Made by a program: the position numbers and the translations under genes. The notes under the pieces were generated by a model. It worked only from the letters and a program-made list of their open reading frames with translations, had not been told where the DNA came from and did no database searches. 64,000 nucleotides of DNA from Rhynchobatus australiae (lineage: Eukaryota), in NCBI GenBank assembly GCA_034780895.1, contig JAUZTB010000072.1, positions 13,627,458 through 13,691,457 on the forward strand, given 5' to 3'. Below, piece by piece: positions 16,701 to 64,000 of the stretch; the first letter of the stretch is position 1; each line of letters starts with the position of its first letter.

Positions 16701-19700
16701 TGGAGAGCACTGGCCATGCTGCAGGCAGCAGACAAACATTACAACCCCTGCAAAATGAAATGGAGGGGAAGTTGGACTAAGAGAGGATTTGACCTGCTAC
16801 TTGTATCCAATAATTATAATGGCAAAGCTTTGCTCAATTTTAAGCCAGATCTTTGCCCTTCTTTTCAATAATATTTCTAACTTAAGTAGAAAACAACATT
16901 TGGAGAGACAACATTTGGAGAAATGCAAAGAGCTAAATTGAAATGAGGATTCAAAAAGAAGTCCTCAATTTTATATTAGTAATTTATATAAAAGTAATTA
17001 TGGCACAAAATGGCATCCCTAAAGTAAGCAAGTATGACAGGTTCTATTAAATTCTCCTGTTGAATAGAAACAGACATCAGATTTATTACGGGTTTGGATT
17101 CTAACTTCAATATGTGGCTGTGACATCAATATTTATAATTTCAATGTATTCAAGAAATGTAGTAATAATAAAAAAGGAATTCCCAATTTAAGCATTTCAA
17201 AAGATTAAAACTTCTCTTTAAAGAGAAGTAACATTAAGAAACCAATTAACTTTGGGTTGTGAAATTAAAACACAGTATTCAACTATGTGATAAACATTTC
17301 AAGTTCGGAGTTATAAGCTTTTAGCACTGATCATTATATAATCTCAAATCCAAGTAACTTCTGAGTTTGTTTCTTCCATATATGCTTTCTGTTTTGAAAA
17401 TACCTTTGTCAGTCTCTCACTGAAGTGAATGGACTGAGGAAGAAAATAAACAAGTGCATTTTTTCTAACAAGCCTCTTGATTATACAAAAATCTAGCAAT
17501 CTCTATCTTGAATGTATTTACTGAGCCCACACAATCCGCTTGAGTAGAGAATTCCAATGACTTCACTTTTTCTAAAAGGCATGCACCTAATTTTTTTTCC
17601 CTATCACTCTTCCACTAATTGTTTTTCCTCTACATCTGAAGAGATTCATTCTTTGCTGGGGTACAACTGTATGATAGCTTCTAGTCTATGTACAAGTTGC
17701 TATTTTTCATGTGTATCTACTACATTAAATACTGGCAGATTATTCAATAATTGCCCACTCCCATCTCATGTTCATGGATGTAATTCTGGCAGAAACAATG
17801 ATCAAGAGCAGGAAATGCCCACTTTTCTGTCCATAATCTAGATATTTTTAGGACCAAATATAAACCTACAATTACCATCATGGCTGAATTCATCCTATTA
17901 AGCAAAGGATTCCAAAGACTTTTGGGGGCTCCATTTTAAAATACTCAAACGTTTCTAAATACCTCCCATAGCTTCGCCACATTTTGTTTTGCATTCTCTT
18001 CTAGCCCACAAACACTCTGAAAACTTTGCACTCTTCCAATTCTGGCCTTGATAATGTGCCAATGTTTAGAACTGACATACATTTGACTGCTAAAGGTCAA
18101 ACTCTGCANNNNNNNNNNNNNNNNNNNNNNNNNNNNNNNNNNNNNNNNNNNNNNNNNNNNNNNNNNNNNNNNNNNNNNNNNNNNNNNNNNNNNNNNNNNN
18201 NNNNNNNNNNNNNNNNNNNNNNNNNNNNNNNNNNNNNNNNNNNNNNNNNNNNNNNNNNNNNNNNNNNNNNNNNNNNNNNNNNNNNNNNNNNNNNNNNNNN
18301 NNNNNNNNNNNNNNNNNNNNNNNNNNNNNNNNNNNNNNNNNNNNNNNNNNNNNNNNNNNNNNNNNNNNNNNNNNNNNNNNNNNNNNNNNNNNNNNNNNNN
18401 NNNNNNNNNNNNNNNNNNNNNNNNNNNNNNNNNNNNNNNNNNNNNNNNNNNNNNNNNNNNNNNNNNNNNNNNNNNNNNNNNNNNNNNNNNNNNNNNNNNN
18501 NNNNNNNNNNNNNNNNNNNNNNNNNNNNNNNNNNNNNNNNNNNNNNNNNNNNNNNNNNNNNNNNNNNNNNNNNNNNNNNNNNNNNNNNNNNNNNNNNNNN
18601 NNNNNNNNNNNNNNNNNNNNNNNNNNNNNNNNNNNNNNNNNNNNNNNNNNNNNNNNNNNNNNNNNNNNNNNNNNNNNNNNNNNNNNNNNNNNNNNNNNNN
18701 NNNNNNNNNNNNNNNNNNNNNNNNNNNNNNNNNNNNNNNNNNNNNNNNNNNNNNNNNNNNNNNNNNNNNNNNNNNNNNNNNNNNNNNNNNNNNNNNNNNN
18801 NNNNNNNNNNNNNNNNNNNNNNNNNNNNNNNNNNNNNNNNNNNNNNNNNNNNNNNNNNNNNNNNNNNNNNNNNNNNNNNNNNNNNNNNNNNNNNNNNNNN
18901 NNNNNNNNNNNNNNNNNNNNNNNNNNNNNNNNNNNNNNNNNNNNNNNNNNNNNNNNNNNNNNNNNNNNNNNNNNNNNNNNNNNNNNNNNNNNNNNNNNNN
19001 NNNNNNNNNNNNNNNNNNNNNNNNNNNNNNNNNNNNNNNNNNNNNNNNNNNNNTTATTTATTGGTAACTTAGTGATTTTTATGTCTTGCACTGTATTGCT
19101 GCCACAAAACAACAAATTTCACAACATACAGTATGTCAGTGATAATAAACCTGATTCTGCCAAATAGAAGAAACTTTTCAAATGATGTTTACTCACCAGT
19201 AGAACGGACTGGCAAATTTTGGACCTTGATTCCATAGCTCTTGCGTGGTTCATCCTTTTCCACAGGTGTTGGGAGTTGAACTGGTGGTGCAGGGACTGCA
19301 GCAGACTGAACGGATCTTGCTGGAGACTCGTCACTGGAACTGCTGCTTGAATCACTACTGTGAAAAGTAAAGCTACTGGTTAGATTTGACCAACTGTGTT
19401 CCACATTACAGAAAATATGAGTACATTCCCATTATAGCTGCAGACTAAACAACATCCAATTTATTTATATCTATCCTACAATCCCAATCCTGTTGCTATG
19501 GAGAGCTCATGCTTCTCCAAAGATACAAAGCAGTAAATAAAAATTAACTTTGCGGCTCTTATAGTCAAGGTTAGAGTGGCAGCAACAATGATCTTTAAGT
19601 AGGTGATGCACTCACTCAGATAAAAATGTTTTGTTCAGGTTAGTATAAATGCACATCAAATGTCTTACTTTTTTTTAAGTGTAATAATTTTTTTGAAATA

Positions 19701-22700
19701 CAGTATTATGATAAATCAATAAACTATTCTTTTATAAAGGCTTGCTCCATTTCACATGTTATTCAATCAGGAGAATGTCTTTCTACATGTAGTAATTCAG
19801 TGTATTATCATGTCTCTTTACAAATACCAAAATGTGTTTAAGGAATACAAATAACATACTGCAGCACAATTTATGAATTCCCATCAGACTAACCATATGT
19901 GCATGCTACTCATATTTTGGTATCAATGAGATTTCTACAACTGCATCATTTTATAAGCATTCAAATTAACAGTTTATTGCATTATAGCAACCAAATTTAA
20001 ACTTTTCTCCTTTTATCTATACTCCGCATGGATTAGAAAGTGTTAACCCATTTATTAAAAAAAAACTTTAGAATCTAAGCACAGTTTAACAATTGGTAAC
20101 GGGGAAGAAATTTTCAAAAAGCTGATAAACATAAGCAATAGGTATAAACTGATAGACTCTATGCACACAGTTTGAAGAAACAAGGTAAACACAATTAAGT
20201 TCCAAATAATATTGGAAGGCCAGTGAAACCTCTGTCCCAAGTACTGTACAAGCGAAACTGATTTCCGACAAAAAGTTGTGGTTTTGTCAATCAGTTCCTT
20301 CAAAAAGGAGAACTGGTTGGTATAAGAAAGGAGATTATAGAAAGTATGATTAAAATCACTATTTGCATGCTAACCAACTAAAACACCATGCAATACACGG
20401 AGCCAAGTGATCAGATTAAACCTCTGCAGTACTATGATACCTTGTCATGAGTAGTGGTAGACAACTAAAGAGCTAACAGGAAGAGGCAGCACCAAGATCA
20501 GCCCCATTTTCAACAATGGGGGGGGTCCAACATATGAGTTCTGAATAAAAGGCTGAAGCATATATAATCATGTTCAGCCCGAAGTGCCAATCTATTTTGG
20601 TTCCTCCTNNNNNNNNNNNNNNNNNNNNNNNNNNNNNNNNNNNNNNNNNNNNNNNNNNNNNNNNNNNNNNNNNNNNNNNNNNNNNNNNNNNNNNNNNNNN
20701 NNNNNNNNTGAAGCATATATAATCATGTTCAGCCCGAAGTTCCAATCTATTTTGGTTCCTCCTAAGATTGCCACCATCACAGAAGCTGGTCTCATGGTAA
20801 TTCTTATTCACTCCACTTGATATAAAGAAACAGCTGTGAGCATCAAATTGAGCAAAGGGTATGGGACCAGAAAATCTCAGCTATAGTACTGAAGACCTGC
20901 GCTCCAGATCTACCTGTGTTCTAGCCAAGCTAATCCAGTACAGTTACATAACTGGCATCCATGCAACAATGTAGAAAATTGCTCAGATATGCACAAATTA
21001 CAGAACAAACCCAAGAAGACCAACCAATGTTCAATCAATCTATCTACTCTCGATGATCAAGAATTGATGGAAGCCATCACCAACAGTGCCATCAAGTGAC
21101 AGTTAGTCACCAGTGGAATCATCTGGCTCCAGATCTCATAACAATCATGTTTTAAACATGGTATAGAGCTGAATGCCAGAAGTGAATGAGAGTTCTGCTC
21201 TTATCATCAATGCAGCACTTGACATTGTGTGGCATCAATGTGCTCTGGTTAAACTGAAATCAATGATCATCAAGGGGACAACACTCCAATGGTTTGAGTC
21301 ATAACTTGTATGGTTGTGGTTGTCTGAGGTCAATCATACCAGCTCCAGGGCATCACTGCAGGAGTTCCTCAGGGCAGTGTTCTAGACCTAAGCAACTGCA
21401 CCTGCTTCATCAATGACTATGGTTCCAATCATAAGGTCAGAAGTGGTGATGTCTGCTGATGATTGTGCAGTACTCAATTCCGTTTGCAACTTCTCTGCGA
21501 ATGAAGCAGCCCATGCCTGTAGGCAGCAAGGCCCAGACAACATTTAGGCATTGGCTAATAGTGGCAAATAACATCTGTGAGACAGCAGAGTCAGGCAATG
21601 ATCACCTCCAACAAAAGAACACCTGACTATCTATCCTCGACTTTCAATGACATTACCATTGTCAAGTCTCCCAACTTCAATATACTGGAGGGTCACCACT
21701 GACTAACCACACTCAATTAGACTAGCCACACAAGTATTGTGGCTACATGAGCACATCAGAAATTCAGTTCCTTTTGATATTGAAGTCCTGCACCCCAGAC
21801 AGGATACTTTCTATGGTGCACCTATTGTTGAGGGTTAAGAGGGACATGCTGAGTTTCTTTAGCCTCTTGAGGAAGTAGAGGCATTGATGTGCTTTCTTGA
21901 CCATGGCGTTTACTTGGTTGGAACAGGACAGGCTACTGGTGATATTCACTCCCAAGAACTTGAGCTCTCAACCTCAGCACAGTTGATGTAAACAGGAGCA
22001 TGTGCACCACCCCCCACCCCCCCTTCCTGAAGCCAATGACTAGTTCTTTTGTTTTGCTGACACTGATGGAAAGGTTGTTGTCATGACACCATGCTACTTG
22101 GCTCTCTATATCCTTCCTGTACTCCGACTCATCATTATTTGAGATTTGGCCCATTACAGTGGTGTCATCTGCAAACTTGTAACTCTAACTCCAAGCATAA
22201 TCTGGCACGCAGTTGTTAGTGTATAGGGAGTAAAGTAGGGGGCTGAAGACACAGCCTCCTGGGGAACCAGTGTTGAGGTGAAGGTGTTGCTACCTACACT
22301 TATTGATTGTGGTTTGTTGGCCTGGAAGTCAAATATCCAGTAGCAAAGGGAGGTGTTGAGTCCGTTGCCTTGGAGTTGGGAGATGAGTTTGCTTGTAATT
22401 ATGGTTCTTAAGGCGGAATTGCAGTCAATAAATAGTAGTCTGACATAGGTGTCTTTACTATCCAGATGCTCCAGAGATGAGTGTAGGGCCAGGGAGATGG
22501 CATCTGCTGTGGACCTGTTTTGGTGGTAGTCGTAGTGCAGTGGGTCGAAGCTGACTTCTCGAAACACTTCAGACCCACCTGGCGGTAATCATTAAGGCAC
22601 ATTACCTAATTTTTCTTTGGTATTGGAACAATAGTGGTCTTTTTTAAAGCTGGCAGGTACCTCTGATTGAAGTAGGGAGAGGTTAAAAATGTCTGCAAAT

Positions 22701-25700: not shown

Positions 25701-28700
25701 ACAAAATATATATAAATGGGGCAATTAAACATCCAGTCCATATATCAACAGGAGAATTAAAACTAGATAATTAATTCAAAATCAGTTTTGACTGAAACTA
25801 GATACATTTATGAACAAATTCATTAATTAAATTCTACTAGAAACAAGCTGCCAGCAATATTCCAACATCATGACAGTTTCAGATTTCCTTTTTACAGAAG
25901 CAGTATTGTAAAGTCAATTTCTTCAGTTCACCCACTGATATAATGGATTTTTGAACAGATTGATACGAAACTAGTTAATCTTACGGCAGAAATAGGTTAA
26001 ATCTACAAGGATCAATTTTGATTCAGTTACATTTACAACCTGCCTATCAACAAGAGCTTGCATTTTCTACCAAAGATACAGAAAGGGTACCATACTGCAT
26101 TCTCACATGTTTCGCAGCATGTAAAATGGTATCTTCTGATGAGCTTTATTAAAATATTACATATTTTCAGTTTTAGGTGGAGTTATCTTTGAATGAACGA
26201 AAGTTATTAATGAGTAATTAATATGCAGGAAGAACCAGTGGCTGTCATTGGAAAAATCAATTAAACCCTTTATTGCAGCAAACACAAATTCTCAAGGAAT
26301 CTGTGAGGTATCTGTTCCAACTCAGCATAAAGTATTCATTTTAAAAATGCAAGTTGTTTTCAGAGTTGGTTTCAAATAAGAGAATTCCATAACCTAACAA
26401 AATCAGGCACAATATTTCCATCCTCTTATTTTTATAAACTGGAACATTCTTGATATTCATATACATTATCATTCAGGAATTCTAGGCAACAGAGTTAATG
26501 ATACAGTAGATAAAAAAATAAAACTGCAGATGCTGAAACACTGAAAAACCTCAGCAGGTCAGTTAATGGTACAGTTCAAGTGCAGCCAAATGATGGTATT
26601 TTGTACAAAATTTATTATTCCACAACTCAGTTGACAGCACTCTCATTTCTGAGTCATTCAAGAGATTTAAGCATTAGATTTAATCTAATCTGATGTTCTA
26701 GTACTTAAATACTACTTTGACAAACGTACCATCTTGTGGATGAGATGCTCTCTCTAGTCCATATGACAGATCCTATAGCACTATTTTGAGGAAGGGTATG
26801 AAAATTATCTCCAGTCCTCTAACCAATATGTATCCTTCTATCAACACTACCAAAATATATTTGATCATCATCCTTTTTTATACATAAGAGCTTGCTTTTC
26901 ACGAATTGATTGCTTTTACAAATCACTGCAATTCAGAAATACTTTTATTAAGAACTTGGGCATCCTGAGATCATGAAAGGTGCTTTACAAATGCAAGTTT
27001 TTTCTTTTTCTTCAGTAGTTTGTTTTAAATAGATTAAAAATAAATTGAATGAATGGTTGGAGAGTATAGGGATACAGGAACAGAACTTGAATATGCATCA
27101 TTCATATAGACTGTATGGATCTTGAATCATTGATATAGATGAGCTGAAACCAAACACTGATCCTTACGCCACCTTGCTAGTTACACTCTGCGTCCCCTAT
27201 TTTCCATATTTCGTCATTCTGAACTCTCAATTGCTCCTCCAGCTCCCAGTTTGGTGTGTCAGAATCAATTTAGAGGTAAAGCAATGATGTTATAGCAGGT
27301 TTAGACATCAAGGTCTTTATTTGCATTCGTTGGCCTCTTCCCAACTACAATTTAAACTGGAGGGACTGAAGCACAAACTCCAGAGATGGAAGAGGTTCAT
27401 TGTCTACAGACCTGAAAATACCACTAAGTGATGCATAATTAGTGCAGCTGAGGTATTACAAAAAGAGTGCTTAGGAACTCTACCGTGAAATTAAACACAG
27501 CCACTCAACACTGAAAAAGAATCTAAATATCGTTACAATGCTTTTCTTCTGCTCAAAAAATAAGACAGGTATCAAATTTCATTCTTTATTATTTGATACC
27601 TTTTTTTCAAAAGTCCAATGCCAACAATATGGCCAGCCAAAGATATTTGAAATGCTATAANNNNNNNNNNNNNNNNNNNNNNNNNNNNNNNNNNNNNNNN
27701 NNNNNNNNNNNNNNNNNNNNNNNNNNNNNNACTGTTGAGTCAAGCAGTGAAACCTTCCATACTGATCCAGGACAACCACAAGGATAATTCAAAAGCTGAT
27801 TTACTCCCTAAAATAAGGAAATTTGATGTGTTCCCCCAACTCTAAGATGTTAACAGAACACCTTTTAGCAAAATTGGCCTATATTATGAGTTGCGCTTAT
27901 TTTCTGCATGGCAGTATTTAGTCCGTGACATTCTGTAATGGTCACCAGAAAAATATTTGCTCTAATGTATATTTAATGGAAGAATTTTAGTATTTTCATA
28001 AAATTGCCAGTTTATGTTTGTGTGCATTAAGTTCCCTGATCCAGAAGATTAAGGTACATGGGATCAATGGTGACTTGGTAGACTGGATTCAAAAATGGCT
28101 TGGCCACAGAAGGCAAGAAGAGAGTAGTGGTGCAGGGGTGTTATTCTGACTGAAGGTCTGCAAGGTTTAGTGCTGGGACCTCTGTTGTTTACATAAATGG
28201 TTTGGACAAAAATGTCGGTTGGTTGATTATTAAGTCTGCAGACTACACAAAAATTGGTGGAGTTGTGGATAATGAGGAAGGTTGTCAAAGGATACTGCAG
28301 GATACAAGTCAATTGCAAATAAGGGTGGAGAAATGGAACATGGAGTTTTATCCAAACAAGTGAGGTGTTGCATTTTGGCAACTTAAATGTAAGAAGAAAG
28401 TATACAGTAAATGGTAGGACCCTTACAAGCACTGATGTACAGAGGGATGTTGGGGTGCAGTACCAGAGCTCCCTGAAAGTGGCAACACAAGTAGATAAGG
28501 TGGGAGAAAAAGCATATGGCATACTTGTCTTCACTGATCTGGAGATTGAGTATGAAAGTTGGCAAGTCATGTTGCAGCTGTACAAAACTTTAATTAGGCC
28601 ACATTTGGACTATCATATGCAGTTCTCTTAGCTGCATTGCAGTAAACATGTAGAGGCTTTGGCGAGAGTGCAGAAGAGGTTCAACATGATGTTGCCTGGA

Positions 28701-55700: not shown

Positions 55701-58700
55701 ACAGCATAAGCTTTGTCAAAGGTGAGTTTGTGCTAAAATTACATTCCTTTCTTTTATATAACTTCTTGACAACTCTCCATAATAAAACATGTGGTACTAT
55801 AAATAAAATTAACTAGCTTAGTTTTTAAAATATTGGATTACCAACTTGTACACTTCACCTTTCCTGATGAATAGTAAAAACGACCAAATGATCCCCTTTA
55901 TTCTGACGTCAAATGGGATACGTTGATGGAAACTTTGTGGTATGCTCCTCTCCACCTACCTGTCACTGCTGGTACTACTGCTGCTGCTGACTGAATCACT
56001 GCTTGATGACCTACTCCGGGACCCACTGCCACTGGGAGATCGTCGTGACCGTCCTTGGCTAGGTCGTTGTGGGGACTGGTTTCCTGACCGTGAGGAATGT
56101 GGGGATCGACTTCTGCTGTGCTGATAATTCTTTTCTTGCCGCCTCCCTCTTACTTCCCGAGTAATATCTTCCCTGTAGAGATCTCGGTGTACTACACTTG
56201 AAATTGCAAACTGTTCCCTCCCTCTTTGTTCATAACGTGGATCATGAGCTTCAAATCGAGTAGGACTTCGACTTCTTGACCCATAATAAACTCCATGTTG
56301 TATAGTTCGATCCCGAGGATCTCTATAGTAATCCTGTTCATAATGTCTGGGACGATCAAACCCTGCTGTTGTACGATCGTGGTGTCCATAGGCACTATGA
56401 TCATAAGTACGCTCCCTGTTATCAGAAGCCCTGTTTTGTTTGGAAAAGGGGATGGAAAGAGGAAGGAAAAAAATGACAATCAGTCAAGCATTATCCATAG
56501 AGCAGGAAGATCCCCTTTTTGCCCCCCTCTAAACACTGGCAAAATAAGCATTTGACTTTTAAATAGCAAATATAAGGAAACAATAAAGAAATTGGCAAAA
56601 GCATTATGTTCAGTAGTTATTATTAAGAAACTGAATGCTTTCTTTCAATGCTTATCCTTCACAGTAAACTTATTTCCTAATGCAGTTGATATTATACTAA
56701 TTATTAAGCTTACATTTCTTAATTCTCATGTATTAAAGTTAGGAGAAGATTAATGCAAAACCTGATTTACCAAAGTTTAATTAATTTGCTGCATAATTTA
56801 CCTCAGTAAAAATAACAATACTCAGAAATATATTTATTTTAAATTCTGGAATTTCCATAATTCTACTCATAATCTTCATAATTATTTTATATTCAGATCA
56901 TTTTTAATCACTTCCCATTCTAAATTTCTTCCATGCAAGATATTATAACAGTATTATTTTTCCATTGACATTCTAGATTCAGAAAACAGAAAACACTGAG
57001 TAGCAAAGCCACTAAGCTATGCATAGAGTCAAGTTGACTTAATCAGCGAGGTATAGAACTGAGCTTACAATGTACTGTGGAATCATTTTTACACTGACCT
57101 TTCAGCAATGAAAAGAAGCAAGCTGATTCCAAATTACTGCCATCAGCTGACACACAAAAAAAATACAAATTCCTAATCCATGAAAGACAAAGACAGGCAA
57201 AGAAGCTAACAGAGATGCAAGACAGTGAGATTCTATTGGCTAAGTGCTGATTGAATTTTTTAGCAGTGCTAATGACTACTGGAGTTAGTGGAAAGAAAGG
57301 GTTGACTGGGTTAGGAGAGGGGCTAAGATACGCATGGCAGGGCATACCAACCTTTTTAGACTGCAGTAAACACGACCTAAATCCCAATTAAATCTAGGGA
57401 GAGAAAAGTGTACAAACATTCCCAATTTGGTCCCCTCTTAAAGGGGTAATCCAACTTCGGATAGTGCTAGTGCCGCATTGATTTGGGGATTGTATCAAGA
57501 AAACTGAACGCCCAAGAAAGATAAACTTCCATTGCCAGTGTTACGTATATTCGCCTCAAAGATAGCTCCCAAAGTTTTAACAGTAACTCCCAAACCCCAA
57601 GACCTTTCTGAGATGCGGAGTGCGTTCAGATGGATGTATGACGGTAAATAGATGTATCCCAATTCCAGTCGACATTAAGCAACTATACCCGTTACTCCCA
57701 GAGCACAGTGCTTTCTTCTAGTAGTAGGTATATAATATCCATTTTCTAGCAGTCAGTTGCCATGTCTTAAAATATTTTCACATTTGATCTGAAAGTTAAA
57801 ATGTAATGTATCCACTAACAGATTTCCCTTGTTTGATAGTCCACTGGTACAATAAGTAGAATCAAGAAGAGTATGAAACACAAACCAGGTAATCCAAACT
57901 GCCATACAACTACTTTAAGATGAATATAATCCCACGTTGAAGAGATAATGCCCTCCATTCCATTATGCAGGAAAATGAAATTCCAAAATGTTTGAAAGCT
58001 TCTACAATTTAATCGTTGGACCAGAAATATCCATAAGATCCAATTGGGGTGAATCAAAATAAACAGTACAGATATGTAGACCCTTGTATATGATACGTTC
58101 TCAATTCTTCAGTTTTCCTTCAAATGAATTCATGTTGAAAATCATGAGCTGTAATATCCTTCAAGGAAAGCAGTAGATCAAAGAGTACTATATCTTCATT
58201 GAAATAATTTCATATCCAAAGAACGTGCATCAACACCTTACACTTAAGCCAAAGCCAATATGATACTGCAGAAAGTCTTCAATGCACTTCAATATTGCCT
58301 CAAACAGTAGGTCTAGTAATTCCATAGTATTCCTCAGGTTGGTTGTACCAGGATGCAATTTCATAGCCACTCAATCGAAGGGATACATCCAGAGGGAACG
58401 GCTTGCAATCCATGGAGAAAAGGGAAGCTTATTACGAGGGTTAACTCCATAGTAACTGATAAAAACCTTCCATCAAACTAACCAAACTTATCCCAGGAGT
58501 AGTCATCCAGCCAGCTGCAGAATAGATCCACTGCGAAGAGGCCAGAGCTGCTACTGGTTTCAATTCTCTTCCATATCCAACAACGACACGAATGTATAGA
58601 TTTCCTCATTAAATCCATCTGGGGAACCTAAACATGAGTTGCTGCTTCTCACACTATTTATCAAAACCCTGCCTAGAGAAACCTTGGAACTTACCCATCA

Positions 58701-59015
58701 AGTCTCCGTTCATAACGTCCTTCCCGTCCATGTAGTGATGGTGGTGGTCCATATGTTGGCCCCCCACCACCTCCCCTGAACCCTGAAACCTCTCTAGTAC
58801 GAGTTCCTATAGGAACGGTATCATCTAATCCCCGAGCAGCACTTGGAATAGTGCCAGGCTCATTGTAATCCGTTCGAAGATCTCGGTCTCCCATTTTGTT
58901 GACAGAATTGTGCGCTTTCTGTGCACTTTTGATGTCCACAAAATCCACAAAGGCTGCCACTCCTCCTTCTGAGCCCCTTTTGGGAAGAATTTTGACACTT
59001 TCCACACGGCCATAT
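1..59015 (-). CDS. SPEN: SPEN / SHARP / MINT gene, partial (coding exons 2-11; exon 1 and the 3' SPOC-encoding end lie outside the window)
   Basis: Ten exons with consistent splice phases join into one ORF: RRM1 part, RS/Ser-rich region, RRM2-4, then a long charged low-complexity exon with SPEN-specific blocks. Exon sizes 321/471/161/201/152/126/114/114/101 nt closely match the human structure as I recall it. Confidence 0.97.
552..659 (-). other. RBPJ-interaction motif of SPEN within exon 11
   Basis: Hand translation GLRVNTSEGVVVLSYSGQKTEGPQRISAPISQIPPA is near-identical to the recalled mammalian SHARP RBPJ-binding segment. Confidence 0.8.
2017..2514 (-). repeat. Degenerate coding tandem repeat, ~15 units of 33 nt (some 30 nt), consensus peptide ~SKAPxSVESVI
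   Basis: Plus-strand units start at 2017, 2050, 2083, 2116, 2149, 2182, 2215, then 2296, 2329, 2362, 2395, 2425, 2455, 2485 (e.g. ggagctttagatattacactctccacagaaaca). Confidence 0.9.
2598..2697. other. Assembly gap (100 N, placeholder length) inside exon 11
   Basis: N run. Other gaps: 1536-1569, 9327-9500, 18109-19053, 20609-20708, 27661-27730, 52518-52617 and three tiny ones. Confidence 0.99.
8090..8385 (+). mobile_element. HE1-like V-SINE remnant
   Basis: V-domain-like gtttgcatgttctc...ggtgctctggttttctcccacctcccaaaaatgtg followed by a CR1-type tail (gggtcaaatggccttcttccgtg). Confidence 0.7.
8795..9100 (-). mobile_element. HE1-like V-SINE remnant
   Basis: Reverse copy of the same family (catctttgggatgtgg...gaaacccatgc...gaggtcaggattgaac...ctggagctgtgaggc). 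Confidence 0.7.
9876..9976 (-). CDS. SPEN: SPEN exon 10 (end of RRM4), 101 nt, GC donor
   Basis: atag|GTGGATTTTGCAAAT (VDFANRESQLAFYRSMEVSGQDIRDLYEIFAERR). Ends AG|gcaagt; phase 2 matches exon 11. Confidence 0.93.
10496..10609 (-). CDS. SPEN: SPEN exon 9 (RRM4), 114 nt
   Basis: acag|ATTGTG...ATAAAG|gttag; IVLDRQKGMALVLYDEIECAQTAVQETKGRKIGGNRIK. Confidence 0.95.
11917..12030 (-). CDS. SPEN: SPEN exon 8 (RRM3 end / RRM4 start), 114 nt
   Basis: ctcag|CTGGGA...CTCAAA|gtaagt; LGFGKSMPTNCVWLDGLSSNITEQYLSRHFCRYGPVLK. Confidence 0.95.
13659..13784 (-). CDS. SPEN: SPEN exon 7 (RRM3), 126 nt
   Basis: tgacag|GATATTGAC...CTCAAG|gtcagg; DIDIKKVNGVPQYAFLQYCDIASVCKAIKKMDGEYLGNNRLK (not in the ORF track; translated by hand). 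Confidence 0.95.
15004..15155 (-). CDS. SPEN: SPEN exon 6 (RRM3), 152 nt
   Basis: ttgcag|AAACGG...ATTGTG|gtatgt; ETESENEFRPLDDRIDEFHPKATRTLFIGNLEKTTTYGDLRNIFERFGEIV. Confidence 0.95.
15750..16065 (+). mobile_element. CR1/HER1-like LINE 3' fragment, degenerate
   Basis: Similar to the 3' ends of the CR1 copies at ~28800 and ~42200 (gttggaattctctac...gatagagactgctagatttttg). Confidence 0.55.
16300..16500 (-). CDS. SPEN: SPEN exon 5 (RRM2), 201 nt
   Basis: tttag|ACACAAGC...GGCCCAG|gtaggt; TSLKDGLFHEFKKYGKVTSVQIHGASEERYGLVFFRQQEDQEKAMNASKGKLFFGMQIEVTAWTGP. Confidence 0.95.
19054..19160 (+). mobile_element. Rex1/Babar-like LINE 3' tail emerging from the 945-N gap
   Basis: gcactgtattgctgccacaaaacaacaaatttcac...gataataaacctgattctg, a typical (GATTCT)n-ended tail. 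Confidence 0.55.
19197..19357 (-). CDS. SPEN: SPEN exon 4, 161 nt (NAGNAG acceptor)
   Basis: ttttcacag|TAGTGATTCA...ACTG|gtgagt; SDSSSSSSDESPARSVQSAAVPAPPVQLPTPVEKDEPRKSYGIKVQNLPVRST. Confidence 0.93.
20880..23095 (+). mobile_element. Degenerate CR1-clade LINE RT fragment, split by a Rex-Babar insertion (host parts ~20880-21760 and ~22895-23095)
   Basis: gcaggagttcctcagggcagtgttctagacc (GVPQGSVL) and tctgctgatgattgtgcag (ADDC). The 3' end resumes at catgggaacaccac...ctccaagtcac. Confidence 0.75.
21764..22890 (-). mobile_element. Rex1/Babar-clade LINE reverse transcriptase pseudogene
   Basis: Broken ORFs [70 protein letters not shown]. Confidence 0.85.
23360..23525. mobile_element. Penelope-derived short palindromic element
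   Basis: gcaggtcaagcagcatctgtggaga...gctgcctgatctgctgaatatttcc; dispersed family with further copies near 34530, 44590, 62570 and 63770. Confidence 0.6.
26630..27010 (+). mobile_element. Deu-domain SINE (SacSINE1/AmnSINE1-like)
   Basis: ggatgagatg...agatcctatagcactattttgaggaag...ccaatatgtatccttctatcaacac... with an L2-type tail catcctgagatcatgaaaggtgctttacaaatgcaag. Confidence 0.65.
28040..29130 (+). mobile_element. CR1 (HER1-like) LINE, 5'-truncated
   Basis: ADYTKIGG (ADDTK motif), LHFG...DVQRDVGVQ...LQLYKTLIRPHLDY, 3' tail gggccaaaggacttgttcttatgctgtac. Confidence 0.88.
29560..29940 (-). mobile_element. Penelope-like element remnant (pLTR region)
   Basis: tgcagatactagaaattggaaacaaaacagaatgctggaaatag...aggcagcatctgcagagagc. 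Confidence 0.55.
30740..31240 (-). mobile_element. L2-like LINE 3' remnant
   Basis: Purine-rich degenerate sequence (gagagatgattagggacagaaatccag...gttgaggcatt...ggagccagg); related segments at ~32440-33330. Confidence 0.45.
36412..37075 (-). mobile_element. CR1 (HER1-like) LINE 3' part
   Basis: KANAVSAFISRGLEYKSKDVMLRFYKALVRPHL; KKDVLALETVQRRFMRMIP; TRGHSLRIEGCPFRAEMRRNFFS. Confidence 0.9.
37850..39650 (+). mobile_element. RTE-clade LINE pseudogene
   Basis: RGMIDMIFVARQLQEKCR, VKQSHITTPTLFTIFL, LPTLLYSSET and C-terminal CSTCGRDCRSNI resemble RTE/BovB-type ORFs; many stops and frameshifts. Confidence 0.82.
41365..41672 (+). mobile_element. CR1 LINE 3' end
   Basis: RGDLIEVYKIMR...KGHAFKARGGKFK; tail gggccgaagggcctgttcctgtgctgtac...ttctatgttcta. 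Confidence 0.85.
41862..42537 (+). mobile_element. CR1 LINE 3' part
   Basis: tccctgaaagtggcgtcataggtggacagggtgg...; LPEEVVEAGTITTCKRHLD; tail gggcctgtttcccatgctgtattgctctatgattcta-like. Confidence 0.88.
42690..42915 (+). mobile_element. Deu-domain SINE remnant
   Basis: gatgagatattaaactgaggcccc...ccaatatatccttcaatcaacaccaccaaaac...tgtccaaactggctgcc. Confidence 0.65.
46480..47350 (+). mobile_element. Degenerate CR1-clade LINE RT fragment (same family as 20880-21760)
   Basis: ccaataacctgctcactcatgttcagtttg..., cttcatcgatgacctt..., ttttcagataattgc (F-x-D-x-C). Confidence 0.65.
47880..49340 (+). mobile_element. Penelope-like element 3' part (GIY-YIG C-terminus plus pLTR), split by an insertion at 48259-49031
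   Basis: RFAKHFHSICK-DPELPAACH...KLKE-PLIF...; pLTR-like end ttattgaccta...tttctctctccatggtcgctgcctaacctactga. Confidence 0.65.
48259..49031. mobile_element. Putative non-autonomous DNA transposon (TcMar/Tigger-like ends)
   Basis: Left end TA|cactggtacct...ctcagattgca; the right end read in reverse complement gives cacaggtacct...ctcagattgca. The interior is GC-richer than the flanks. Confidence 0.5.
49500..49818 (-). mobile_element. HE1-like V-SINE
   Basis: caatttacagtagccaattaacc...ggaggaaaccggaacacccac...aaactccacacagacagca. Confidence 0.78.
54040..54480 (+). mobile_element. Highly degenerate CR1 3' fragment
   Basis: accttggataggtctcatatgaagtactgtgcatagttctg (LxRxHxxYCxxF). Confidence 0.5.
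55960..56430 (-). CDS. SPEN: SPEN exon 3 (RS/Ser-rich), 471 nt
   Basis: aacag|GGCTTCTGATAACAGG (ASDNRERTYDHSAYGHHDR...HSRSRSPHSSRSGNQSPQRPSQGRSRRSPSGSGSRSRSSSSDS...). Ends GACAG|gtaggt; phase 2-2. Confidence 0.94.
58695..59015 (-). CDS. SPEN: SPEN exon 2 (RRM1 C-terminal part), 321 nt
   Basis: ctttcag|ATATGGCCGT...GATGG|gtaagt; YGRVESVKILPKRGSEGGVAAFVDFVDIKSAQKAHNSVNKMGDRDLRTDYNEPG...ERRLDG. Confidence 0.96.
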
Positions 59016-59166
59016 CTGAAAGAAAGAGAGAAAAAAATAAATAAGCAAAATACAAACTAGCCAGGACATGTTACAATAAACATTTTATATAATATTGCAA
59101 TATTCAAACAGTATTATTTTCAACTTTTGCTTTTAGTAACTAGAAAGAAATTTAAATTCAACACTA

Positions 59167-59512
59167 GTGGCACAGTAGCACAGCAATTAATGCTGCCACC
59201 TTACAGCTCCAGAGATCCGTTAATTGATCCTGATTTTGGGTGTTGTTTATATGGAGTTTGCATATGGTCCCTCAGTGTCATTCCCCTCCCTCCCCCCAAC
59301 TCCCCCATCTAGCCCAGCCTGCACCCCCAGAAGTTTTCCGTTTCCTCCCACATAGTAAAGATGTGATGGTTGGCGGGTTAATTGGCTATTCAGGAGAATA
59401 AGAGAGGGGAGATGATGGGGATGCCAAAGGAAAAAATGGAATTAATGCAGGGCTCGATGGCTGGCGTGAATGCAGTGAGCTGCAGGGCATGTTCCTGTGC
59501 TGTATGACTCTA
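59167..59512 (+). mobile_element. HE1-like V-SINE, near full length
   Basis: tRNA-like head gtggcacagtagcacagc...cagctccagagatcc, V domain, CR1-type tail gggcatgttcctgtgctgtatgactcta. Confidence 0.78.
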
Positions 59513-61499
59513 CAACTAACTTCATTTTCATGTTTTTAATATAAACTATACTATTCAGCTGCCATCAACTGTCTCTTTCAGAAAATATAGCCAACATTAT
59601 GAAGAAAGTATATGTGATATGACAGGACCAGGAATGGAGGTCTGGGGAAGAATTGGTTCTAAGTTACTCTTAATTTCCATTCTTGCATATATTCTATATC
59701 TGATCACCAGATTTCTGATCGTGGTACTGATGAATAGGTAATATTGTTAATTTGAGGACACGCATATTTTCCGATTAAAACCATTATAAGATCCTAATTT
59801 ACACTGTGTAAAGTAAACCTTGCAAGTTAAATTAACTGTTTGGATTCCTTTATACCTGATGCAGAAACTTGAAGCACACTAACAGCGGTCAGGTGTCATT
59901 TCCAACATTCACTGATGTGTATCATTGAATTCATTGGTAGATTAGCATTCTTTCCCGGTTCCTTTTCCCACTTTCAGAAGCTGAGTCCCCAGTTCCTCCA
60001 ACCTCCTATTAGTCTTACTCCATCAGTAATCTTATAGTCCCAAATAATTTTCATATTTCCATTCCTCAGTGAATTATCCACTAATGCTTTAGGATTTGCA
60101 TTCAACATAATGGTCATTAATTGCACTAATTAAATTCCAAAGGGACTAATGGATCTTGCTATACTCTTTACTTAACCTAAATGGAGAAACATCAATGTGC
60201 TTGAATCTGCTGAGAAACATATATTCAAGTATTCCAACAATGTCATTCGCAAAATAAGATTTTCAATTTCCAGGTTAAAATTATACCATACCAAAAACAA
60301 AAATATTCATTAATGTCAAGCCAACTAAAATGCAATATACAATGCTCAACTGTTAATGCATTCTTGCAACAAACTAAGTTCTGTTCTGACATAGACATGA
60401 ATAAACATGAATACTACGAAAAAAAGCAGAGTTCACAGCTTTCATTCCACTCACCCAATCCCTATTTTTTTCTTATTTAATCCCTCATGTTCTATAGTAT
60501 ATTATTGATACTTAGCTTGTACCTTAGGAAATGGATTATGGTCAACATTTTACTTTGCTAAAAAAATATGCAAAAATGAAGGTAACAATTTTATCATCAA
60601 TGAATGTGCTAACAGTAAAAAACAAAAAGTAATAAAACAGAATATACAACCTACTTTTTTTAAAGCTTTTTTTTTAATAAATGTAAAAGCTAATTGCCAT
60701 CAGTTCTCTAATTACCTCTCCCCTACAACATCCCAATCTTGGCCCTGAATTCATGTTTTGTAAGAGAATCTGCAGGATTATGGTGAGTGTGGGGAAGTGG
60801 ACTACTCTTGCTCAGAGCCAGACTTGACATGAGGGGCCAAATGACCTCCTCCTATCACGAGTCTGCCATAAATACTTTGTCAGTTATTCTTTGATTGCAC
60901 TCTGGTGTTTCATCAAAATAATCATTTTTCTTGCTTATTCTCTGAGCTTAGTCTCATTTTCAATAGTCACACATATGGTTCTCTTACAGCCTGGTGATAT
61001 AAAATTGCTAAATGTGCTACAGGTTGTGGGATAACTACAAAGTTTATTTTGGAATGCCTGTACTGGCTCCCTGGCAACTCCTAATCACTAAACTAAAAGC
61101 AGTTGCATGCATTTCCAGGAGGTGTCATTATACAGTGATCAGAGAAAAAAATTGCTCTTCAAACCCAGATGACAGGTTCATCGTGGCACCCCAAATGCTT
61201 TTCACATACCCTGGTCAAGACCTGCAATACTCAGTAAACAAAAAGATACTGGCAGTCCAGTGGGGGACGGGGTTAATACTGTGGATAAACGTGGGAGCTG
61301 TGTTTTATATTAGGGACAATTTTGCATTTTTATTGAATTATTTTGTTTCACTAAATTTTTCACAAGACATAATTATGGAATATTTTAAGCTATGTTGCAT
61401 GGTTACAACTCGTGATTGTCCTGCCAAATAAGGATAACGTGGAAAATTCACAAATTTTAATTAATCTGATCAATGTTTTTCCATCAGGTATTACGAAAA

Positions 61500-61860
61500 C
61501 CGCAGGCAGTAAAATGCCATCTTTTCACAAACATTTCGGTGACTGCTGTTATCAGACCTTTTTTTCATTTTAACCCACATTCAAATACGTGCTGTTTACA
61601 GGCTTGTGTGTACTTTGAGAAACCAAGGCCGTTTAAACAAACAACTGGACTTTGAGCAAATCCCGAGAGCAGCTATTTATGTGCTTTCCCTCAGTGACGA
61701 GCTAAACTGGCCGCATGACACACCTTGTGGCTGCTTTCCAAGCTCTCCCGATTGCTGCAATCTCGCAGCCGACCAGCGGTGCAATGCTGTAAAATGGCGG
61801 GACATATCACAGGCATCAAACGGACACATATAATGGCGGGAGACGAGGGGGGGAAAATGC
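61500..61860. promoter_or_regulatory. CpG-richer intron-1 segment with YY1 motifs
   Basis: AAAATGGCGG at 61791-61800, ATAATGGCGG at 61830-61839, GCCATCTT at ~61516; CpGs visibly more frequent than in the other introns. Confidence 0.45.
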
Positions 61861-62564
61861 TCAGAATTAGGTCATAGTAAATCAATAGCGCTAACGAAAA
61901 ATGATCGGTTATTTAGATACCGTTGGACGTAATTTCCCCTAAAGCAATCTTTTTCATTTCAAGGACATCATTCCTTGTAAGATTTTCATTGGGCGCAGTC
62001 ATCAAATAATCTACCTTTCAGAAATTGGGTGGATCTTTCAAGAATATCACATGATCTGCTTGTATTGCAGTAAGATTTCAATGCAGTACGTTCTAATTTG
62101 TATTTGCCTCCTTACGTAAATATAAAAAGAAATGTTTCCCCATTTCTGTAAGTAGAGAGGTGTTTCGATTTACTGCTTCAGTCACTTGTACAGAGATCTC
62201 CATGAAAGCGATTGTATTTGTTTTTAAATAATTCGTGATGCGATTAGAGTGACGTTTATCAGTGGAATAAATTGCCTTGTTGCTTCTGGGCAAGTCTCTT
62301 GGGAGAAGTGAATGCCACACCGACATTTTTACACAATGCATGTTATGCGAAGTTAGAAACTGCTCTGCTATTGCAGAAATCCTGCAGTTCAGACTGTTCT
62401 CGATTTCCACAAACGTTACTTCTAAAACTAAGCGCAATAATGAGTCTATTTTCGCAACAGCAACATTTGAAAGGAAACAATGTCCTACTCGAAGTGCGAT
62501 AAAATTATTTTTATGCTAACTCAAAGTTAACATAAACTATCCGCACAGCCCATCCAAACTGAAT

Positions 62565-62805
62565 ACTCATGTGGCGGGAACATTCAGCAGTAGAGCTAAC
62601 GTTGCAGATGGAAAATTCTTCATCAGAACTGGGGGAAAAGGAAACAAGGACGAACTTGTTTTCTTTCCCAGTTTTGACGAAGGGTCTTCAAACCAAAACG
62701 TTAATTTGTTTCGCTTTCACAGATGTTGCCGGATCTAAAAAGAGTGTTTTCAGCATTTTATGATTTTTCCCAGATTTCTAACATCTGCAGTTTTGTTTTA
62801 ATTTT
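62565..62805. mobile_element. Penelope-derived palindromic element
   Basis: Head-to-head halves ...ttcttcatcagaactggg / cccagttttgacgaaggg...aaaacgttaatttgtttc...cacagatgttgcc. Confidence 0.6.
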
Positions 62806-63769
62806 TCACTTCCCTGGAGAAGGAGGATAATATCCAAAGGAAACCCGAAGAAGCCTCTCTACTGGTAGCAACTCGATCCTTTAATATGGACATGGGTGAA
62901 GTTATGTGCCGAGGACTACACTACTTCGAAACTATCACTTAGGAAAAAAATGCAGAATCGAAATTTAAGATTGACGAGAAATACCGCCCTGGATTTTGCT
63001 GGATTACTCATCATTTAATTTTTGAGACAGGTCCTCACTGGGTAATCTGCCGACCTGACTCGGGTTCCACAATCCCATAGATTTCACTAGGGTTAGTAGG
63101 ATTGCGGGGAGGGGAAAGAAATGTCTGTTCATTTATGTTTAATGGTAGTTCGTCTAATATCTAACATTTACATTTAATTCTACTTCATTTTACTCGTTTT
63201 GAGTCGTAATACTGAACATTGAGAAACAATTTAAAACAGACGACATTGACAGTCGGCTTTGGCGTTTTGTGAACGGTACTTCTGATCCACCCACTGACCA
63301 CAGCTCGACCTTGGTTCTACCTGATCAAACCAGATCAGCTTTTATTCAAATAAGATAAATTCAGACGAGTGGCGATAGCGAGTAGCAGGGCCGTAGCAGT
63401 AACATCAAGGCCATTTCATGGCATTAGACCCTGCGAAGAAGCACTCCCTAATAGTACTGCTAGTTTAAAATTTGTTGGAGGGTTTACACCATATATAAAA
63501 ATGGCTCCAGCTACCCTGACGGTAATGTTCCAGAGTGGTCATTAATATCAAATGTAACGCTTAATTTCGAAAGCTCCAATGTATTAAAATAAACATCCAG
63601 AAATACATTTAGTGGTGGGAAAGATAATGGAACTTTTATTCAAAGATCCAACAGAAAAACGTGTAGAAAATATAATAAAGAATAGTCAACATCTTGCCAT
63701 GCAATATAGCTCTAAGCTAAATAGGAGAGACATACAAAAAGATATCCCAAAAAAGAATGGCCAAGCCTG

Positions 63770-63950
63770 CTGAACTTGTAACAAAATAGAAAATGCCAGA
63801 AATGTTCATCAGGCCAGGAGGCATCTATGGAGAGAGAAAACAAAGACAACCTTTCAGATCAATGACTCTTTATCTTTCTCCATTGATGCTGCCTCACATG
63901 CCAAGTGTTCACAGTGCTTTCTGTTTGAGATTTCCAGCATATGCAGTAGA
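63770..63950. mobile_element. Penelope-derived palindromic element
   Basis: aaaatgccagaaatgttcatcaggccaggaggcatctatggagagagaa...tctccattgatgctgcc...tttccagcatatgcagt. Confidence 0.6.
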
Positions 63951-64000
63951 TTTGATATACATGGGCTTTTGAAATGTCTTTGATAAGACACGACTAAGGT

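Follow-up and report, generated by a model that had tools for sequence, protein, structure and literature searches.

A probable unproductive 5' splice site extension of SPEN exon 2 in a ray, with a distal donor region common to bird and mammal

Does the 1.3-kb stretch that directly follows exon 2 of SPEN in the ray Rhynchobatus australiae limit the output of the gene, and if so, by which splicing event? The window analyzed here is a 64,000-nt stretch of contig JAUZTB010000072.1 (assembly GCA_034780895.1). It holds most of the SPEN gene on the minus strand, and the long exon of the gene is 98% identical to SPEN of Pristis pectinata and 82 to 93% identical to SPEN of other cartilaginous fish. 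An earlier note, made from the letters of the sequence, had proposed an old dosage-control module in the 5' part of intron 2, organized around a cassette poison exon. We conclude that the module is real, but that it is best read as a 1343-nt lengthening of exon 2 and not as a cassette entered at 58514 or 57788. In our judgment, the segment is probably an unproductive alternative-5'-splice-site extension of exon 2 that limits SPEN output. The features on which this reading is built are collected in Table 1.

TABLE 1 Features of SPEN exons 2 and 3 and of the intervening sequence in the R. australiae window
Feature	Position	Strand	Description
SPEN exon 2	58695..59015	(-)	321 nt, encoding most of RRM1; the proximal donor at its 3' end is the productive one
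Premature-stop TAA within the proximal donor	58691..58693	(-)	Read in frame if splicing passes over the proximal donor; the distal junction lies 1339 nt downstream
Probable exon 2 extension (alternative 5' splice site segment)	57352..58694	(-)	1343 nt; CpG-retaining, UGGA/UGGAU-rich, DRACH-poor
Block conserved with crane and rabbit	57368..57458	(-)	Nucleotide level; two 1-nt frame-shifting indels
Acceptor-like pyrimidine tract, TAG-ended	57394..57416	(-)	Candidate; 42 nt upstream of the distal donor, within the conserved block
Distal donor AAG/GTTGGT	57346..57354	(-)	Two RefSeq isoform models splice the orthologous position to exon 3
SPEN exon 3, RS-rich	55961..56430	(-)	Acceptor common to both donors; 3' end approximate

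Exon 2 has the same length in ray, mouse, and human, and intron 2 of the ray gene spans 2264 nt, with exon 3 beginning at 56430. When the sequence was checked, every site named in the earlier note was found in its place, including the donor after 57352. If the proximal donor is skipped, its GTAAGT stays in the message and is read GGG TAA, the immediate stop that the note had described. Translation would end right after codon 135, so full-length SPEN could not be made and the product would encode at most RRM1. A stop codon that lies more than 50 to 55 nt upstream of a splice junction exposes an mRNA to nonsense-mediated decay (NMD), and the predicted stop in the ray precedes its downstream junction by 1339 nt. 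Entry through the two acceptors that the note had singled out also leads to early termination, as described: from 58514, an exon of 1163 nt that stops at 58480-58478, and from 57788, one of 437 nt in which 7 codons precede the stop. The note had also claimed more generally that every long product carries a premature stop; a stop is encountered from 65 of the 67 AG sites, and two run without one. The read-through frame alone contains 27 stops, and stops in a noncoding stretch of 1.3 kb are expected by chance and are not evidence in themselves.

The composition of the extension sets it apart from its surroundings. It retains 21 CpG dinucleotides (o/e 0.42), as against an o/e of 0.08 in the rest of intron 2, and exceeds 25 of 26 intronic control windows of the same size, which bears out the CpG retention reported earlier. 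Ten of the 21 CpGs cluster in 57451-57700. The pentamer TGGAT occurs 13 times. Dinucleotide shuffling (1000 replicates) gave 3.3 ± 1.7 copies, and the 26 control windows contain no more than 5 each; none of the shuffles or windows reached 13, and the 921 nt after the distal donor contain 2 copies alone. This motif was chosen after inspecting the sequence, and its enrichment has a P value of 0.0012 after correction over all 5-mers. UGGAU-containing RNAs are bound by RRM1+2 of SRSF1 (PMC7813835), and the density of UGGA(U) suggests SR-protein enhancers that may define a long exon. The m6A consensus DRACH, by comparison, is depleted (15 versus 26.7 in shuffled sequence, with at least 15 in all 26 control windows). 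An enrichment of m6A motifs in the ray extension is therefore ruled out, and its sequence gives no support there for control by m6A.

Other searches of the extension gave little. In line with the earlier statement that it has no recognizable transposable element, self-matches within the window were none better than an E value of 0.07, a weak test because only 7 of the 26 control windows had one. Pfam families matched none of its 11 open reading frames. One of these, a frame of 46 codons from ATG to stop in the early part of the extension (58478-58618), has its 3' end in common with the 58514 acceptor product and is probably due to chance. Rfam gave no match at the gathering score, and one 16-bit match (cut-off, 50) fell outside the extension. 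Local folding had a z score below -2 in 1 of 21 150-nt windows. With repeats and hairpins both unconvincing, the extension does not have the marks of a structured RNA.

The proposed distal donor is a plausible splice site. Its predicted pairing with U1 (-8.4 kcal/mol, by a crude duplex score, not MaxEnt) is joint best when set against 118 other GT sites of intron 2, and that of the proximal donor is -10.3 kcal/mol. The neighboring GT at 57348 was rejected, given its weak pairing (-4.2 kcal/mol) and a register that is wrong for the junction seen in crane and rabbit. A donor-like AAG/GTCAGT at 57099, 253 nt downstream of 57352, has an equal pairing score and is a candidate only.

Evidence that the homologous donor is used came from protein models of other vertebrates. 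A search found 655 long SPEN-like proteins. Of the 120 that were listed, one had no species name and was set aside, which left 119 for examination. Among those examined, one crane isoform, X8 (P0044), starts with a segment derived from intron 2 and joined to exon 3. When this segment was used as a query, both candidates returned carried it: crane X8 itself and rabbit isoform X2 (P0121), which stands for a cluster of 12 sequences. Of the 46 residues that immediately precede exon 3, 44 are identical in the two; farther upstream they diverge. Within the window, the crane and rabbit segments match best at 57470-57351 (E value of about 3e-6). Both matches end at the junction predicted by donor 57352 and enter exon 3 in the same register, and the homologous donor is thus the one used in the two RefSeq models. 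Ray, bird, and mammal lineages are separated by roughly 420 to 450 million years.

The conservation appears to be noncoding. We aligned degenerate back-translations of the crane and rabbit segments to the ray DNA with a method that tolerates frameshifts. The ray fits at 84 of 91 positions (57458-57368) with two 1-nt indels, and the alignment scores of 68 to 69 compare with control maxima of 22 to 30 (25 windows each). Because of the two frameshifting indels, the same bases fall in different frames in ray and tetrapods, which argues that RNA near the distal donor, and not a peptide, is what has been conserved over this block. The intron-derived N termini of the crane and rabbit models thus probably reflect a noncoding constraint that the ray frameshifts expose. 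Conservation with the ray was seen only for the last ~110 of the 1343 nt; the next 120 to 170 nt upstream of 57458 aligned no better than controls (9 of 100 and 44 of 100 of which scored as high). A 36-nt match between ray and rabbit at 57614-57579 (32 of 36 positions) was discarded, as 9 of 100 controls reached it. None of the 22 listed chondrichthyan proteins begins in intron 2, and a 50-residue ray frame at ~57437-57288 had no match among proteins of 89 to 2000 residues, a range that does not include full-length SPEN. Gene predictors often give stop-containing transcripts a downstream ATG. Six RefSeq or GenBank SPEN models (P0034, P0036, P0084, P0091, P0096, and P0103) begin far downstream, with a methionine near RRM2, and they may be predictor readings of stop-containing transcripts such as the exon 2 extension.

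In mouse, the corresponding event has been reported directly. Wei et al. (2021; PMC8327914) describe a METTL3-dependent alternative 5' splice site in Spen intron 2 and, beside RBM15 CLIP tracks, show m6A in the intron close to the 5' splice site. Their LeafCutter cluster consists of two introns only, with the acceptor chr4:141517318 in common and donors at 141522072 and 141520859, and the exon blocks confirm that this is intron 2 and that mouse exon 2 has 321 nt. The gene, the intron, the length of exon 2, and the shared exon 3 acceptor are therefore the same as in the ray, with the distal donor 1213 nt downstream in mouse and 1343 nt in ray. In nascent junction reads, the distal donor had a share of 0.337 in controls, and 3 h of METTL3 degradation lowered it to 0.167 (P = 0.002), a change that is not significant after correction (adjusted P = 0.156). 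Six contiguous high-confidence m6A peaks (141520883-141522277) begin within exon 2 and stop 24 nt short of the distal donor, which places m6A between the suppressed and the promoted donor in mouse. The accompanying rise in total Spen RNA was nonsignificant (log2FC of 0.38 and 0.47; adjusted P of about 1). The authors class the event as an alternative 5' splice site; their SAS class may cover alternative first exons as well. They describe segments of this type as poisonous and do not commit themselves on what becomes of the RNA. For Spen, the available part of the report gives no stop-codon geometry, NMD test, or cross-species analysis.

With 34% of cluster reads in mouse and the models in crane and rabbit, the splicing event is one that is actually used in those species, and it is predicted for the ray. 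We regard the m6A-marked alternative 5' splice site of mouse as very probably the orthologue of the ray event. Position strongly argues that the distal donors of mouse, ray, crane, and rabbit correspond to a single site, and, again judged by position, the whole 1343-nt ray stretch would be orthologous to the 1213-nt mouse extension. The mouse extension is tiled by m6A peaks (PMC8327914); that of the ray is DRACH-poor. Other genes of the m6A pathway in the same study resemble Spen in making unproductive METTL3-dependent splice choices. The effect on those genes was stronger (for Ythdc1, a fall from 20-30% to near 0), and protein rose, whereas the Spen share halved with an adjusted P of 0.156. 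The earlier proposal that the 5' portion of intron 2 holds an ancient module for unproductive splicing, with its end at donor 57352, is supported by the homologues of the donor region in the crane and rabbit models and by the mouse distal donor, but not in its cassette geometry. The reported binding of SPEN to its own exon 2 (PMC7282817) also speaks for the proposal. The regulator reported in mouse, METTL3/m6A, had been overlooked.

The cassette poison exon would run from acceptor 58514 or 57788 to donor 57352 and be degraded by NMD. Both AGs are present, both lead to early stops, and 57788 has a branch-point-like TTAAC at -11. Yet the two acceptors are unremarkable, with 12 and 13 pyrimidines in 20 nt, respectively, and a competing AG at -18 weakens 58514 further. 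The mouse cluster, from one cell type, holds no junction between exon 2 and an internal acceptor, and m6A coverage in mouse runs unbroken between exon 2 and the distal donor (PMC8327914). The products of the two acceptors were found in none of the 120 listed named SPEN proteins, a weak result because stop-containing products would rarely enter a full-length set. We therefore consider a cassette of this kind very unlikely. The choice of acceptors had also passed over the strongest acceptor-like site of the stretch, at 57393, which has 17 pyrimidines in 20 nt, lies within the conserved block, and has its next AG more than 43 nt away. Together with donor 57352, it would form a 42-nt in-frame exon without a stop, either by itself or as a third, minor product; SPEN would then gain 14 residues after RRM1, ahead of the RS-rich region. 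Ray, crane, and rabbit all keep 14 codons between this acceptor and the donor, even with an indel inside the interval. However, the insert is present in none of the 109 listed proteins with an exon 2 end, the conserved nucleotides fall in different frames in ray and tetrapods, and the junction is absent from the mouse embryonic stem (ES) cell cluster (PMC8327914). Such an exon thus seems highly improbable.

It is also conceivable that an internal promoter in intron 2 provides an alternative first exon and yields SPEN without RRM1, which is the literal reading of the crane and rabbit models, as both start in intron 2. However, the start codons differ, lying 76 codons from exon 3 in crane, 93 in rabbit, and 23 in ray; the upstream frame is broken between ray and tetrapods, and the habit of gene predictors to choose a downstream ATG for stop-containing transcripts would generate models of this type. 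An in-frame ATG at ~57419 in the ray, the CpG cluster at 57451-57700, and the breadth of the SAS class (PMC8327914) speak for a first exon; the m6A signal that runs on from exon 2 in mouse (PMC8327914) speaks against it, and on balance we rate it just as improbable as the 42-nt exon. The last alternative is that the stretch serves mainly as a landing pad on nascent RNA, where bound SR proteins and SPEN would dampen transcription in cis, with the distal splice and m6A being by-products of a long exon-like stretch. SPEN CLIP signal across Spen exon 2 and an increase in Spen mRNA upon loss of the protein have been reported (Carter et al. 2020; PMC7282817), and self-binding was reported again in bioRxiv 2023.06.05.543769. 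The bound exon directly adjoins the extension, and Carter et al. read self-binding as cis repression of RNA output, in a main text where the word "intron" is absent (PMC7282817). SRSF1 is reported to recruit SPEN, both proteins are linked to the m6A machinery, and autosomal genes are repressed by SPEN at SR-bound RNA (bioRxiv 2025.05.21.655143). SPEN is also absent from the supplements of three papers on NMD and unproductive splicing (PMC11188260, PMC10123112, and PMC7347940), a finding that likewise counts against the NMD step of the extension reading. Against a landing pad, the best-conserved block identified adjoins the distal donor, and one-third of nascent mouse junction reads use that donor (PMC8327914). 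As the main explanation we give it very little credence, although it is compatible with an alternative-5'-splice-site switch and does not exclude it.

For the alternative-5'-splice-site extension, the mechanism might proceed as follows. In the sequence, exon 2 has two donors, at 58695 and 57352, and a single exon 3 acceptor serves both. If the ray resembles mouse, a sizeable share of nascent transcripts would skip the proximal donor in favor of the distal one and carry a 1664-nt exon 2. Retention of the proximal donor would place the stop after codon 135, and the resulting RNA would be degraded, either by NMD, as the 50-to-55-nt rule predicts, or in the nucleus. METTL3 and m6A on the extension favor the distal donor in mouse, with modest statistics, and might do so in the ray. 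Proteins such as SRSF1 may bind the UGGA(U) cluster and render the segment exon-like, and SPEN itself may feed back at the extension. One could extend this to a SPEN sensor common to jawed vertebrates, in which UGGAU loads SRSF1-type proteins that bring SPEN, and SPEN brings the m6A writer to its own nascent RNA and so promotes the distal donor. Such a closed loop would be older than Xist, and the same SR-SPEN-m6A assembly would later have been adopted by Xist Repeat A. We hold this sensor to be doubtful; were it true, the extension would be a splice-switching target, so far unlisted, by which SPEN could be increased in haploinsufficiency.

The splicing event is already known in mouse, as a secondary finding of work on m6A (PMC8327914), and in the literature searched that paper and its preprint were the only publications found on this Spen intron. 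What is new is that the distal donor region is common to ray, bird, and mammal, together with the apparently noncoding nature of its conservation, the geometry of the stop, and the UGGAU signature. None of these four points was found stated in the literature searched, the coverage of which takes in few subscription journals. Likewise, neither NMD of an exon-2-extended SPEN isoform nor an effect of SPEN binding on the splice choice was found in the literature consulted; Spen is a UPF1 target by way of its long 3' untranslated region (PMC4858158), which is not that isoform. A 2025 survey (PMC12096787) lists SPEN as intolerant of loss of function and as having no nonproductive splicing (TANGO) event or target.

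The ray event can be compared with the ultraconserved poison exons of SR and hnRNP genes, which reportedly act through alternative splicing coupled to NMD (Lareau 2007, as cited in PMC8327914). Like them, it combines noncoding conservation beside an alternative splice site, a gene for an RRM protein, and a stop far upstream of a junction. Unlike them, it is an exon extension and not a cassette, and its ray-tetrapod block contains mismatches and indels. Loss of SPEN function is not tolerated and causes the dominant Radio-Tartaglia syndrome. If about one-third of nascent SPEN transcripts in human cells are wasted in the way seen in mouse ES cells, then blocking the distal donor would be a direct test of SPEN dosage, and in human cells such a block would perhaps raise it.

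Several minor observations concern the same gene. An ATTAAA at 58008-58013, inside the extension, could permit intronic polyadenylation, and in mouse the transcript model ENSMUST00000152081.1 ends 269 nt past the start of intron 2. Intron 1, as far as the window shows it (59016-64000), is CpG-rich overall (o/e 0.51), and the top control window for CpG (o/e 0.84) probably lies within it. Runs of N that mark assembly gaps occur at ~18090-19060 (~1 kb) and, within exon 11, at ~1530-1570 and 2600-2700; those inside this long exon break its reading frame. Intron 3 contains degenerate frames at 22154-22588 and 28064-28631 that resemble remnants of LINE reverse transcriptase. Finally, among the 109 listed proteins with an exon 2 end, 88 run into exon 3 and 21 skip this RS-rich exon in frame, in sharks (5) as well as mammals (16). 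Skipping of exon 3 is thus a second old splice choice that adjoins the module, and it removes part of the region that has been linked to the sensing of SR proteins.
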